64,000 nucleotides of DNA from positions 586,678 to 650,677 of the forward strand of contig CAVRKE010000002.1 of the NCBI GenBank assembly GCA_963722305.1, read 5' to 3'. A program made the position numbers and the translations under genes. Within the stretch, counting starts at the first letter, position 1. Every line of letters starts with the position of its first letter. Source of the DNA: Candidatus Levyibacteriota bacterium. GTDB lineage: Bacteria; Patescibacteriota; Microgenomatia; Levybacterales; UBA12049. Under the pieces are notes generated by a model that worked only from the letters and a program-made list of their open reading frames with translations, did no database searches and was not told where the DNA came from. Of the stretch, positions 58,609 to 63,604 are shown one piece after another.

Positions 58609-60743
58609 GTGAGGAGAAGGCCCATTGAATTTTTCCGATTTATTTCGGAAGAGTTTAATGGGAAGATTTTTAATCTACTCATAATGCCGATAATGGATGC
58701 CTAGGAGGCTTTGACCGAGGAAGGACGCATACGGCGGCGATACTCGTTGGGGAGGTGCCATAAACCTTTGATCCAGCGGTTTCCGAATGGGGTAACCCAC
58801 CAGCTTGTCTGGTGGCCAAAAATGAACTTGGACTCGTAAGAGTTCATATAACTTTTGGCCGGGTACGGCGTGAACTGAAACATCTAAGTAACGCCAGGAA
58901 TATAAATCATCCGAGATTCCGTCAGTAGCGGCGAGCGAAAGCGGAACAGTCTAAACTTGTGCGCAGCACAAGAAATCACAAATCACAATGACCAAATCTC
59001 AATTAATTTTGGGATTTGGATTTTGGAGCTTGGGGTTTCTCGCGTTGCGCGCGAGGGTTGCAGGGCAGACGATATTCGATTAAATTCAGGTAGCAGAAGG
59101 ATCCGGAATGGTCCTCCACAGAGAGTGAAAGACTCGTACGCGAAACTTGAATTTACGATAGTCTGTTCCTAAGTACCATGGGGTACGGTGAAACCCTGTG
59201 GGAATCTGGGGCGGCCACGTTCCAAGACTAAATATCAAAGTCTACCGATAGTGAACTAGTACCGCGAGGGAAAGGTGAAAAGCACCCCGGGAGGGGAATG
59301 AAATAGAACTGAAATTGTCGGCTAACAAGCAGGCAGAGTCGAGCGCAAGCGAGATGATGCCGTGCCTATTGAAGAATGAACCGGTGAGTTATTGATTGCA
59401 GTATAGCTTAACCAAGCTTGTCTTGGGGAGGCGTAGTGAAAGCGTGCCCTAACCGGGCGATTAATTGCAGTCATTAGACCCGAAACTGGGTGAGCTAACC
59501 TTGAGCAGGGTGAATGTTGACGAAAGTTAGCAGGAGGCCCGAACTCGTAGCAGCAGCAATTGCTTGAGATGACTTGAGGTTAGGGGCAATATGCCAAACG
59601 AACCCAGAGATAGCTGGTTCTCCCCGAAATATATTTTGGTATAGCGGTTATTTGTAATACGCTGAGGTAGAGCACTGGATGATCATTTGCGTCGCAAGAC
59701 GTAGGGATTAACCAAACTCCGAATGCAGCCGTATGTTTAATAACTAGTCAGACTCGTCGGGCTAAGCCGATGGGTCAAAAGGGAAACAGCCCAGACTCCC
59801 ATCTAAGGCCTCTAAATAAAGGCTAAGTTTTGAACGAAGTCAAATTTCATAGACAACCAGGAAGTTGGCTTAGAAGCAGCCATCTTTTAAAGAAAGCGTA
59901 ACAGCTCACTGGAGGATGATATTTGGCGCGAAAAATTTATCGAGGATTAAGCCTTTTGCCGAAGTTGGAGTTCCTATTTTATTAATTTAAGGTAGGGAGG
60001 TAGGGGAGCGTTCTATTTGCAGTGAAGCCGAGGTGTAAACCGAGGTGGAGCGGATAGAAGTGAGAATGCCGGTATGAGTAGCGAAATGCATGTGAGAATC
60101 GTGCACGCCGAATATCCAAGGTTTCCTCCGCAATGTAAGTCAGCGGAGGGTTAGTCGGTCCTAAGGGTGTGCCTCGTTAAAGGGGCGTAGCCCGATGGAT
60201 AAGTCGTTGAAATTCGACTACAGAATGTGAACCGTTCAAGGGAAGGACGAAAGTGGAAGAGCTGAGTCCCGTTCGCGGGATTTAAGCAGTAAGATAGTGA
60301 TAACTGGTAAATCCGTTATCGTGTTTAATCAAGCTGCAAATAAAAGGGATTAGTAATAATTCCGATTTAGTAGCTTTCAGTTTCCGAGAAAATTTTCATT
60401 GAGTCCCAAGAGCAATCGAAGGACAAATTCATATTTTTCCGTACCGCAAACCGACACAGGTGGATTGGTCGAGAAGACTAAGGCGATCGAGTGACAGATG
60501 TTCAAGGAACTCGGCAAAAAAGCTAGGCGTAACCTATGGGAGATGCCTTGTCCTGATTAGTTTCAGGATTGCAACAAAAGTTTATTTACCGACTGTTTAT
60601 CTAAAACACAGGTCCCTGCAAAGCCGAAAGGCAAAGTATAGGGGCTGACGCCTGCCCAGTGCTGGTAAGTCAAATATCGTGAATAAAACGTCGCAAGATG
60701 TCAGTTTGTGATATAAGCTCCAGTAAACGGCAGCAGTAACTAT

Positions 60744-61452
60744 AAGAAATTGTAGTTATAAAATTTAGCTATATGCTGGAAAATCTGTACCGCAACTGTT
60801 TAAAACAGACGGTTGAAGTATCTGGCGTTACTATGTTATATTTAATGTAGTGAAAAAACGTCCAGCGCAGACAATCAGCAGGAAAGACCTTGATCGGAAG
60901 AATTTAGGCTATTTTATAGCGGGGTTTGTAGAAGGAGAAGGGAGTTTTAATGTATCACTTCGTAAAAAAAGTGATTATAAGGTTAAATGGCAAATTGTTT
61001 TAAGTTTTAATGTTTCCCAAAAAGATCCATCAGTTCTTTTTATAATAAAAAAAGAACTAGGATGTGGAATAATTAAAACAAGAAAAGATGGTTTGCATTC
61101 TCTAGATATTACAAACTCTCAAGAAATAGTCAAAAAAGTTATTCCATATTTCACAAGATATCCTTTACTATCTAATAGTAAAATTAATAACTTTAATATA
61201 TTCTGTAAAATCTCAAAGCTTGTTGAAAGCGGAGAGCATAGAGATATTAAGGGATTAAAAAGAATTTTACTTTTAAGAGAAAAATTAAATGAAGGTAAAG
61301 GAAGAACAAGGAAATATGGATATAATGATATATTTCCGATTGAGGAATCCTCAGAGACTATACGCTAAACCCGCTTATAAGCGGTGATGATATAGTCCGA
61401 CCTCATGGACGACCATGAGACTCTGTATTCAATCAGAGCAAGTAACAATGTG
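60744..61452 (+). mobile_element. group I intron 1 in 23S (E. coli position ~1917 region) with LAGLIDADG ORF
   Basis: The 5' exon ends ...GTAACTAT. The R element TCAGAGACTATACG overlaps the ORF end. The S element GATGATATAGTCCGACC is present. The intron ends ...CAATGTG before the 14-nt exon AACTGTTCTATGGT. Confidence 0.65.
60850..61368 (+). CDS. LAGLIDADG homing endonuclease (intron-encoded)
   Basis: Single-motif LAGLIDADG: LGYFIAGFVEGEGSF. Confidence 0.8.
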   Translation: MKKRPAQTISRKDLDRKNLGYFIAGFVEGEGSFNVSLRKKSDYKVKWQIVLSFNVSQKDPSVLFIIKKELGCGIIKTRKDGLHSLDITNSQEIVKKVIPYFTRYPLLSNSKINNFNIFCKISKLVESGEHRDIKGLKRILLLREKLNEGKGRTRKYGYNDIFPIEESSETIR

Positions 61453-61466
61453 AACTGTTCTATGGT

Positions 61467-61712
61467 AACACTTCGTTGCTTTAGAAAAAGTGTTTTAGAA
61501 ATCTAACTATATGCTGGAATAACTCAGAATCCAACAGTACCAGAAATGGTAAAAATCTGTTTGGTGGAGTCAATCAGCAGGGAAGATCCCGATCTCTCGG
61601 GAAACCCTCAGAGACTAAACGTTAGAGTCGCCATTCAGGCGATAAGATATAGTCCGACCTCCGATGCGAATCGGAGAATCTAGATTTGCAAGATCTAGGA
61701 TTAACATAATTG
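61467..61712 (+). other. group I intron 2 in 23S (E. coli ~1931 region), ORF-less
   Basis: R element GGGAAACCCTCAGAGACTAAACG and S element ATAAGATATAGTCCGACC. Ends ...AACATAATTG immediately before exon AGCGAAGTTCC. Confidence 0.6.
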
Positions 61713-62363
61713 AGCGAAGTTCCTTGTCGGGCGAGTTCCGACCCGCACGAAAGGCAGAACGAGTAAATAACTGTCTTGAACATCTACTCGGCGAAATTGA
61801 GATGGCCGTGAAGACGCGGCCTAATTGTACATGGACAAAAAGACCCCGGGAGCTTTACTGTAGCTTGGCATTTGAAAGTATATTCTAACTGTTTAGAATA
61901 GGAGGGAGCTTTGGCAATAGTGAAATACCTCTCTTTGGAATATGCAATCATTACCTCTAGCCGCATAAAAATTCGGCAGAGGGACAGTGTCTGGCGGGCA
62001 GTTTAACTGGGGCGATTGACTCCTACAATGCAACGGAGTCGTATAAAGGTTGGCTAACTGCGGATAGAAATCGCAGTGATAGTGCAAACGCATAAGCCAG
62101 CTTGACTGCGAGACCTACAAGTCGAGCAGGTGGGAAACCAGATGTTAGTGATCCTGTATGGCGTAGTGGTACGCCTACAGCTTAACGGATAAAAGCTACC
62201 CCGGGGATAACAGGCTGATCGCATCCAAGCGTCCACAGCGACGATGCGGTTTGGCACCTCGATGTCGGCTCATCACATCCTGGGGCTGGAGAAGGTCCCA
62301 AGGGTCCGGCTGTTCGCCGGTTAAAGTGGTACGCGAGCTGGGTTCAGAACGTCGTAAGACAGT

Positions 62364-63146
62364 AAAGTTGACCGTTGCTGTCTTCCTTCAAGCGTTTTGA
62401 TACCCTAAAGAGGGAATTGAAGGGCTCTTAATGAGTATAAATCTAGCTAAATGCTGGAAACTCCGAGAATCTCAGGCTACTTGACAAATTAAAAAGAATA
62501 GAGTTATTCTATCTCTATGTCAAGTAAAAATGTCTTGAGTGCGGACAATCAGCAGGCAACTAGGCAAGTGTCAGATGAATATCTAGCAGGTTTTACTGAT
62601 GGAGAAGGTTGTTTCTATGTGGGATTTGGTAAAAGAAACGATTTGCCGCTAAAATGGCAAGTGATTACCGAATTTCACGTCAGCCAAAATCCGGGCGGGA
62701 GAAACCTTTTAGAGTTGTTCAAAAAACGTCTCGATTGCGGTTATTTAAAGCCCAATCATGCTAAAAATCCAAAAGATAAATCTTGGATTTTGATAGTTAA
62801 AGATAGGGATGATCTAAGAAAAAAGGTAATTCCTTTTTTCAAGAATAATCCGCTTTTAACTTCAAAACAACAAGATTTTATAATTTTTTCAAAAGTGCTT
62901 CAAATTATCGAACAAGGTAAGCATTTAAGAAAGACAGGCTTGAAAGAAATTGCAGAATTAGTTTTTAGCAGTCAGAGAACAACTAATAAAAGATATTCAA
63001 AACAAATGATACTTTCTTAGTACCTCAGAGACTATGTGTTAGACCCGCCAATGAGGCGAGGAAGATATAGTCCGAACTGCATAGCGATATGTAGAGCGTA
63101 GTAGAAATACTTACGCCCTCCGAAAAAACGGAGAGTAACATAATTG
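62364..63146 (+). mobile_element. group I intron 3 in 23S (E. coli position ~2593 region) with LAGLIDADG ORF
   Basis: The 5' exon ends ...GTAAGACAGT. R is CCTCAGAGACTATGTG and S is GAAGATATAGTCCGAAC. Ends ...AACATAATTG before exon TCGGTCTCTATCC. Confidence 0.65.
62517..63020 (+). CDS. LAGLIDADG homing endonuclease (intron-encoded)
   Basis: Motif YLAGFTDGEGCF. Paralogous to the 60850 ORF (shared KWQ..., VIPFF blocks). Confidence 0.8.
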   Translation: MSSKNVLSADNQQATRQVSDEYLAGFTDGEGCFYVGFGKRNDLPLKWQVITEFHVSQNPGGRNLLELFKKRLDCGYLKPNHAKNPKDKSWILIVKDRDDLRKKVIPFFKNNPLLTSKQQDFIIFSKVLQIIEQGKHLRKTGLKEIAELVFSSQRTTNKRYSKQMILS

Positions 63147-63604
63147 TCGGTCTCTATCCTGTACAATCGTTGATATTTGAGAAGATTCGTCCCTAGTACG
63201 AGAGGACTGGGATGAGGGAATCCCTGGTGTGCCGGTTGTTTCCGAATAGGAGCAGCGCCGGGTAGCTAGATTCCCAACCGATAACCGCTGAAAGCATCTA
63301 AGTGGGAAGCGGCCTTCAAGATAAGATATCGTGTGCCCGTAAGGGTACTAAAACCCCTTCTAGACTAGGAGGTTGATAGGCGGACAGTGTAAGCGCCGTA
63401 AGGTGTTTAGCTTACCCGTACTAATGGTTTTTAGAGTAGATTGAAAATGATATTTCTCCTCACCTTTAAGGAGCCAAGTTTGACTTGGCGACGCAATCCT
63501 CCTAAGATTGCTCCGTGAGCCGTGTTCGAATAGAACTGAAAAGGCGAACGGTAAAATCGGGAGGATAAAGAGCGCCTTGAACATTAACAATTGAAGATGG
63601 AAAT

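Follow-up and report, generated by a model that had tools for sequence, protein, structure and literature searches.

A bacterial 23S rRNA gene interrupted in domains IV and V by three group I introns, two of them carrying LAGLIDADG endonuclease genes

A 23S rRNA gene with three inserts

We analyzed a 64,000-nt stretch of contig CAVRKE010000002.1 (positions 586,678 to 650,677 of the forward strand), hereafter referred to as the window. It contains a 23S ribosomal RNA (rRNA) gene that is interrupted by three group I introns (Table 1). Introns 1 and 3 each hold an open reading frame (ORF) that represents a homing endonuclease gene (HEG) of the LAGLIDADG type, and we refer to these genes as HEG1 and HEG2. 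No ORF was found in intron 2. The Rfam model LSU_rRNA_bacteria matched the gene with 1866.6 bits across 58668-62404, and a separate 3′ piece was matched at 63176-63324. Once spliced in silico, the 23S sequence is ~3040 nt long and shares 67% identity with Escherichia coli K-12 rrlH in a MAFFT alignment. In this alignment, the exon base directly ahead of each insert is matched with E. coli U1917, U1931 and U2604, respectively. The boundaries are fixed to a single nucleotide because the exons flanking the inserts are near-identical to E. coli. An earlier reading made from the letters alone (the sequence-only reading) had proposed that group I introns interrupt domains IV and V of this gene at three places, with exon junctions at 60743/61453, 61466/61713 and 62363/63147 and an exon of 14 nt between the first two introns. 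All three junctions proved exact when the sequence was read against the MAFFT alignment, and the 14-nt exon (61453-61466) is indeed present. The introns themselves were borne out by covariance models, by the E. coli alignment and by intron-less alleles in metagenomes, as described below.

The 23S gene is preceded by a transfer RNA (tRNA) gene, tRNA-Ala(UGC), and followed by a 5S rRNA gene. An Rfam search detected no 16S rRNA gene anywhere in the window. The rRNA operon thus appears to be split, with the 16S gene apart from the tRNA-Ala/23S/5S genes. The ~2 kb preceding the rRNA genes (region 56000-58668) are AT-rich, with a GC content of 32%.

Table 1. Coordinates of the 23S rRNA gene, its introns and their helices, and of other features of the window
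Feature	Position	Strand	Length	Remarks
23S rRNA gene including three introns	58668..63445	+		Rfam LSU_rRNA_bacteria and MAFFT; 3′ end approximate (63443-63445)
Exon 1	58668..60743	+		Ends at E. coli U1917 equivalent, in the helix 69 loop; last bases ...GTAACTAT
Intron 1	60744..61452	+	709 nt	Site 1917; HEG-bearing group I
HEG1	60850..61368	+	172 aa	GTG start; single-domain LAGLIDADG_1; motif IAGFVEGEG
Mini-exon AACTGTTCTATGGT	61453..61466	+	14 nt	E. coli 1918-1931; carries the helix 69 3′ strand
Intron 2	61467..61712	+	246 nt	Site 1931; ORF-less group I
Exon 3	61713..62363	+		E. coli 1932-2604; starts AGCGAAGTTCC, ends ...GACAGT; Rfam LSU alignments and MAFFT
Intron 3	62364..63146	+	783 nt	Site 2604; HEG-bearing group I; P2 and P2.1 present
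HEG2	62517..63020	+	167 aa	ATG start in the P5b 3′ strand; single-domain LAGLIDADG_1; motif LAGFTDGEG
Exon 4	63147..63445	+		E. coli 2605 to 3′ end; starts TCGGTC
Intron 1 P1	60737-60743 x 60752-60758			
Intron 1 P3	60764-60769 x 61364-61369			
Intron 1 P4	60774-60778 x 60876-60880			
Intron 1 P6a	60888-60897 x 61336-61345		10 bp	Closes the ORF loop
Intron 2 P1	61459-61466 x 61478-61485			
Intron 2 P10	61471-61477 x 61713-61719			7/7 paired
Intron 3 P1	62356-62363 x 62377-62384			
Intron 3 P10	62370-62374 x 63148-63152		5 bp	
Extra hairpin in 23S domain I	58956..59056	+	~100 nt	At ~E. coli 270-292; non-intron
tRNA-Ala(UGC)	58364-58438			Upstream of 23S
5S rRNA	63607-63717			Downstream of 23S
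tRNA-Met(CAU), intron-split	8602-8332	-		C1·A72 mismatch, initiator-like
Group I intron in tRNA-Met(CAU)	8572-8371	-	202 nt	ORF-less; between U33 and C34
AdoCbl-II (cobalamin) riboswitch aptamer	54-131	+		53.7 bits
tRNA-Ile(UAU)	5628-5700	+		
Tyrosine recombinase/integrase gene	6430-7290	-		
Elongator-type tRNA, anticodon CAU	9409-9483	+		G1-C72 pair

Ribozyme cores of the inserts

All three inserts are confirmed as genuine group I introns. The P, Q, R and S core elements occur in canonical order in each of them, as identified by script and by covariance models, and the R and S elements named in the sequence-only reading are among these. A script also located the core helices P3-P4-P5-P6 and P7-P3′-P8, which are complementary in all three inserts. 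Overall, the script verified each helix of the P1-P9 series, including P7, P8 and P9 of intron 1. In intron 3, helices P2 to P9 were confirmed, and a 5-bp P6a stem encloses the ORF loop. The P1 helix, in which the last 7-8 exon bases pair with the internal guide sequence, places the splice-site U opposite a G in every intron. The pairing is 7/7 in intron 1 (UAACUAU/GUAGUUA), 7/8 in intron 2 (UCUAUGGU/GCUUUAGA) and 8/8 in intron 3 (AAGACAGU/GCUGUCUU). Each intron ends in a terminal G (61452, 61712 and 63146). The 3′ end is ...TAACAATGTG in intron 1 and ...TAACATAATTG in introns 2 and 3, which have the identical 3′ end UAACAUAAUUG in common. In introns 2 and 3, a P10 helix forms between the guide region and the 3′ exon.

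The inserts were further evaluated using two covariance models, R1 and R2, that were trained solely on site-1931 introns from unrelated metagenome contigs. R1 was derived from an alignment of the 3′ domain (A1; P7-P3′-P8-P9) and R2 from an alignment of the 5′ domain (A2; P4-P5-P5a-P5b-Q). The fraction of paired cells is 93.6% in A1 and 96.2% in A2, and the pairs changed on both sides number 11 and 16, respectively. For both alignments, none of 500 shuffles reached the pairing or the covariation score, and the pairing collapses on sliding the partner column. Intron 1 scored 51.6 bits with R2 (E 4e-12) and 69.7 bits with R1 (E 6.5e-16), intron 2 scored 84.5 and 75.6 bits, and intron 3 scored 85.8 bits (E 5e-22) and 65.5 bits (E 7e-15). 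Over the three inserts, the E-values of the two models span 4e-12 to 5e-22. The matches are in the correct order, with R2 upstream and R1 downstream of the ORF. Intron 2 was also recovered by the general Rfam model Intron_gpI (RF00028), with 63.3 bits and thus above the gathering score of 50. A search in E-value mode over 60700-63200 gave no Intron_gpI match at all, intron 2 included, whereas smaller windows did match. For intron 2, this miss looks like a filter or reporting effect.

We considered whether the inserts might leave the rRNA without ligation of the exons, either because they are retained as expansion segments or because RNase III excises them in the manner of intervening sequences (IVSs), leaving a fragmented 23S rRNA. 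The removal of IVSs without ligation is well known in bacterial 23S rRNA (Tsurumaki et al. 2024, J Bacteriol, PMC11270868), and the gene studied here itself holds a non-intron insertion, the hairpin in domain I. When the gene is aligned to E. coli, this hairpin gives rise to gaps of 40 and 75 nt, and its folding energy is -59.1 kcal/mol (z = -3.96). The hairpin lacks any features of a group I intron and probably represents either an expansion segment or an IVS of the RNase III type. The three introns differ from it in having a full core, the U•G pair of P1, a terminal G and, for introns 2 and 3, a P10 helix, features that an IVS has no reason to keep. Their helices covary across homologs. They are also located in helix 69 and beside the peptidyl-transferase center, where a retained insert of 250-780 nt, or a break, would be expected to be disruptive. 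Finally, inserts in rRNA genes of the Candidate Phyla Radiation (CPR) were found to be removed from the transcripts (Brown et al. 2015, as cited in PMC11270868). We therefore regard retention or unligated excision as very unlikely, and prefer the reading in which the introns would be spliced out.

Endonuclease genes, relatives and the proposed homing

HEG1 and HEG2 are single-motif LAGLIDADG genes, as the sequence-only reading had held. Each gave one stretch of similarity to Pfam LAGLIDADG_1 (PF00961), well above the cut-off of 23.1 bits (HEG1, 84.7 bits, E 9.1e-24; HEG2, 72.1 bits, E 8.2e-20). The motif helices read from the translations are intact and carry the acidic catalytic residue at their end, within (D/E)GEG. 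They could be aligned with those of I-SmaMI and I-OnuI, and the nearest solved structures are single halves of these two monomeric enzymes. Among PDB sequences, neither protein matched I-CreI at E ≤ 0.01. The two proteins are 40% identical to each other. Both genes are under purifying selection: the ratio of nonsynonymous to synonymous substitution rates (dN/dS) is 0.14 for HEG1 relative to its nearest homolog in another contig, and 0.17 for HEG2 relative to a homolog in the metagenome contig L053. Public data hold >1000 homologs of HEG1 and 314 of HEG2. Few of these carry names, and most of the named ones belong to the Levybacteria, Roizmanbacteria or Patescibacteria group.

The two ORFs are embedded in the ribozyme core. 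Both start in the 3′ strand of the P5 extension and read through Q. HEG1 then covers P6 and R in addition to Q and has its stop in the 3′ strand of P3, whereas the TAG stop of HEG2 (63018-63020) lies 5 nt short of R (63025). The overlap with the R and P7 strands that had been proposed for both genes thus holds for HEG1 and fails for HEG2.

A characterized enzyme of the same family is I-ShaI, the LAGLIDADG enzyme at site 1931 of Candidatus Shapirobacteria, which cuts its insertion site and forms homodimers (PMC11270868). Based on this enzyme and on the single-domain architecture of HEG1 and HEG2, we infer that both proteins would cleave site-specifically as homodimers. The candidate targets are the intron-less junctions, in which GCAGCAGTAACTAT is joined to AACTGTTCTATGGTAGCG at site 1917 (HEG1) and GTCGTAAGACAGT to TCGGTCTCTATCC at site 2604 (HEG2).

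We compared the window to related loci. A contig scan with HEG1 retrieved a single related genome locus, L002, from a metagenome-assembled genome (MAG) of Candidatus Levyibacteriota, and we therefore did not draw a taxonomic distribution from the scan. The host of the window is probably a Levybacteria-like member of the CPR (Patescibacteria), because the nearest genome locus is from this MAG and the named homologs of HEG2 are mostly from CPR bacteria. The 23S exons of L002 are ~87% identical to those of the window. L002 has a HEG-bearing intron at 1917 and an ORF-less intron at 1931, with boundaries identical to those of the window, and its HEG1 counterpart is 86% identical. At positions 7427-7451, near E. 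coli 2500 and just short of the contig end, L002 departs from the exon sequence after GGTTTGGCACCT. This suggests a further insert in L002, at a site where the window has none.

Metagenome contigs include alleles with and without the introns. Among the matches listed for the 24-nt junction sequence CAGTAACTATAACTGTTCTATGGT, the mini-exon is directly joined to AGCGAA in at least 65 contigs and is followed, at exactly this point, by inserts of 231-770 nt in about 35-40. Among the matches listed, 35 contigs reach site 2604, and these include both uninterrupted and group I-bearing alleles. A first, pattern-based count at this site (21 uninterrupted, 12 interrupted) was rough, as several of the 12 are exon variants. 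The contig L053 has an 801-nt intron at 2604 that is 75% identical to intron 3 over 763 nt. Such presence/absence polymorphism at fixed boundaries is the trace of mobile introns. In many related loci (L006, L054, L061, L076, L080, L114), R1 also detects two or three 3′ domains of group I introns on each contig. Given these repeated matches, multi-intron rRNA genes are the rule in the related metagenome set.

These relatives bear on the possibility that the locus is an assembly chimera that joins rRNA fragments or introns of different organisms. The window appears to derive from a metagenome-assembled genome, its 100% identical matches being located on a contig of 679 kb, and rRNA operons are prone to misassembly. 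However, the pair of introns at 1917 and 1931 recurs with the same boundaries in an independent MAG whose rRNA is ~87% identical, and the homologous intron at 2604 recurs in an independent contig. Moreover, the alignment to E. coli runs on directly from the exon before each insert to the exon after it, and nothing is duplicated or lost. A chimera is extremely improbable, and we treat the locus as a single gene.

The mini-exon AACTGTTCTATGGT differs from its E. coli counterpart AACGGTCCTAAGGT by three substitutions, G1921U, C1924U and A1928U. The sequence-only reading had noticed this departure from the bacterial consensus and had suggested that it may reflect the evolution of the homing site. 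Helix 69 is formed by pairing of 1906-1910 with 1920-1924. In the alignment to E. coli, G1921U is matched by C1909A and C1924U by G1906A on the opposite strand of this helix, and both pairs are retained as A-U in place of C-G and G-C. In addition, at least 120 metagenome contigs contain the junction CAGTAACTATAACTGTTCTATGGT uninterrupted by a 1917 intron. Because the helix 69 pairs are compensated and the junction is uninterrupted in so many contigs, the mini-exon is ordinary rRNA of this lineage. Its divergence is real, but it is a lineage-wide rRNA variant and no product of homing. HEG1 must recognize the AACTGTTCTATGGT variant.

Taken together, the exact boundaries, the ribozyme core, the P1 and P10 pairings, the intact motifs under selection and the presence/absence polymorphism are observed features of the locus. 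We consider it very likely that this is the single 23S gene of a CPR bacterium in which three related group I introns self-splice from the precursor rRNA and spread by LAGLIDADG homing, although for this organism we infer the splicing, cleavage and homing steps from sequence. Each intron of the precursor would fold into a P1-P9 ribozyme. An external guanosine would attack after the exon U that is paired with G in P1, and the freed exon end would then attack after the terminal G of the intron. The four exons, one of just 14 nt, would thereby be joined into a continuous 23S rRNA of ~3.04 kb. Introns 1 and 3 would each encode a single-domain LAGLIDADG protein of ~20 kDa in their P6a loop. Acting as a homodimer in related cells, this protein would cleave those copies of the same rRNA site that lack the intron, and repair from the intron-bearing copy would then copy the intron in. 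Intron 2 may have lost its HEG or may never have held one, and could persist vertically or be copied along with its neighbor 14 bp away.

Several points weigh against this reading. The Rfam models recovered the LSU rRNA and intron 2, but introns 1 and 3 remained below the gathering score. Intron 1 reached 29.0 bits on its 3′ domain (E 2e-5), and intron 3 gave matches of 25.2 bits (E 3e-4, 3′ domain) and 14.2 bits, all on small windows. We attribute this to the ~480-nt ORF in P6a, which splits the core and thus the model. P10 is weak in intron 1 (~2 bp). HEG1 starts with GTG, inspection of the sequence revealed no obvious ribosome-binding site for HEG1 or HEG2, and the C-terminus of HEG2 is ~6 residues shorter than that of the L053 homolog. 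The dN/dS values are partly confounded, given that the ends of the ORFs coincide with structured RNA. The homing sites are weakly palindromic at the insertion point, with 5/14 symmetric positions at 1917 and 6/14 at 2604. Palindromy of the target is expected for homodimeric enzymes, and we left it unused as evidence. Lastly, rRNA genes are usually present in one copy in CPR genomes, and homing therefore needs DNA exchange between cells.

Some of these points fit an alternative in which splicing continues but at least one of the two LAGLIDADG genes has ceased to drive homing, being a decaying passenger or a maturase that aids folding. Under the homing life cycle, decay is expected once fixation has occurred (Haugen et al. 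2007, PMC1995217; PMC11270868), and the ORF of intron 2 is already lost or was never there. The early stop of HEG2 and the missing ribosome-binding sites would agree with decay, and part of the conservation could be driven by the RNA, as both ORFs overlap core strands. Conversely, both ORFs have their full length and intact (D/E)GEG motifs, and the low dN/dS values apply to whole ORFs that lie mostly in the unstructured P6a loop. The polymorphism at both sites argues for ongoing mobility, and I-ShaI, a CPR enzyme of the same family, is active. We consider the loss of homing rather unlikely, and retain active homing by HEG1 and HEG2 as the preferred reading.

A separate question is how the three introns are related. 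Possibly they represent one CPR lineage that has moved among 1917, 1931 and 2604. The contrasting case is that of cyanobacteria and organelles, in which each site has its own lineage, acquired independently of the others. In favor of one lineage, the model R2, although trained on site 1931, scores the 2604 intron like the 1931 intron (85.8 vs 84.5 bits), introns 2 and 3 share their 3′ end, and HEG1 and HEG2 are paralogs. We propose this history tentatively and consider it more doubtful than not. Relatedly, the 1931 intron, which lacks an ORF, may be kept because it is co-converted with the HEG-bearing intron at 1917, at a distance of 14 bp. L002 has retained the same pair with the same HEG arrangement.

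Comparison with known introns and other features of the window

We compared the locus to published rRNA introns. Tsurumaki et al. (PMC11270868) reported LAGLIDADG_1 sites in CPR 23S rRNA genes at 1917, 1931, 1952, 2593, 2604 and 2657. The insertions after 1917, 1931 and 2604 described here (MAFFT alignment to rrlH) match three of these sites, named 23IS6, 23IS7 and 23IS13, respectively. In that study, the Rfam intron model classed 45% of the CPR 23S inserts as group I introns, of which about half were ORF-less, and 23IS13 was unreported in other bacteria. Our literature search for 'L2604' did not find this name, and the site was met solely as position 2604 (23IS13) in the same paper. The locus shares with the CPR 23S insertion sequences (Brown et al. 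2015; Tsurumaki et al. 2024) the host group, the positions, the group I architecture, the single-domain LAGLIDADG_1 proteins of ~170-180 aa and the presence of several introns per gene, with HEG-bearing and ORF-less introns mixed. There is no difference in kind. What is added here are boundaries at the level of single bases, the P1 and P10 pairings and the compensated helix 69 variant.

The closest arrangement outside the CPR is that of the cyanobacterium Synechococcus sp. C9, whose LSU rRNA has HEG-bearing introns at L1917, L1931 and L2593 (Haugen et al. 2007, PMC1995217). Both 23S genes contain three group I introns and share sites 1917 and 1931, hence the same 14-nt mini-exon, and in both the HEGs are single-motif LAGLIDADG genes with ORFs that run into core helices. 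All three introns are HEG-bearing in Synechococcus sp. C9, whereas the 1931 intron is without a HEG here, and the third intron is at 2593 there and at 2604 here. The most suitable experimental model for HEG1 and HEG2 is I-ShaI, likewise a single LAGLIDADG_1 domain encoded within a group I intron of a CPR 23S gene. The site of I-ShaI, 1931, holds the ORF-less intron in our gene, whereas HEG1 and HEG2 are at 1917 and 2604 and are known from sequence alone. We also considered the third site as the classical L2593 site of I-CreI-type introns in chloroplast and cyanobacterial 23S genes, and ruled this out. The alignment gives 2604, 11 nt downstream of the I-CreI-type insertion point, and HEG2 matches the I-OnuI/I-SmaMI family and, among solved structures at E ≤ 0.01, gave no sequence match to I-CreI. 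The arrangement is thus a further instance of a kind already described (Brown et al. 2015; Haugen et al. 2007; Tsurumaki et al. 2024). Its particular feature is an ORF-less 1931 intron beside a HEG-bearing 1917 intron, together with a third intron at the CPR-typical site 2604.

The significance of the locus lies mostly in annotation, as it provides a base-resolved example of the intron-laden 23S genes of CPR bacteria. Rfam Intron_gpI misses the HEG-bearing introns and, in a whole-window search, also a tRNA intron described below. For rRNA-based surveys, such inserts explain CPR rRNA genes that are missed or mis-assembled. HEG1 and HEG2 have predicted targets of 20-odd bp in universally conserved rRNA, one of which (2604) is known only from CPR bacteria, and the two enzymes could be modestly useful as meganuclease scaffolds.

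A fourth group I intron, also ORF-less, splits the anticodon loop of an initiator-like tRNA-Met(CAU) gene. R1 matched it at 8380-8462 on the minus strand (53 bits). Rfam Intron_gpI gave 70.9 bits on a small window and missed the intron in the whole-window search. ARAGORN recovers the split tRNA only after in-silico splicing. Introns in tRNA-fMet genes are known from cyanobacteria (Table 1 of PMC1995217). Close to this gene, we evaluated the ORF at 8713-9402 ('LYWGEGFK') as a free-standing LAGLIDADG-like gene. This assignment was unsupported, as Pfam gave a sub-threshold HORMA match alone.

Two further tRNA genes lie in this part of the window: an elongator-type tRNA with a CAU anticodon and a G1-C72 pair, and a tRNA-Ile with a UAU anticodon. 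tRNA-Ile(UAU) is uncommon in bacteria. A tyrosine recombinase/integrase gene is located between these two tRNA genes. At the start of the window, an AdoCbl-II (cobalamin) riboswitch aptamer was detected upstream of ORFs at 81-1980.

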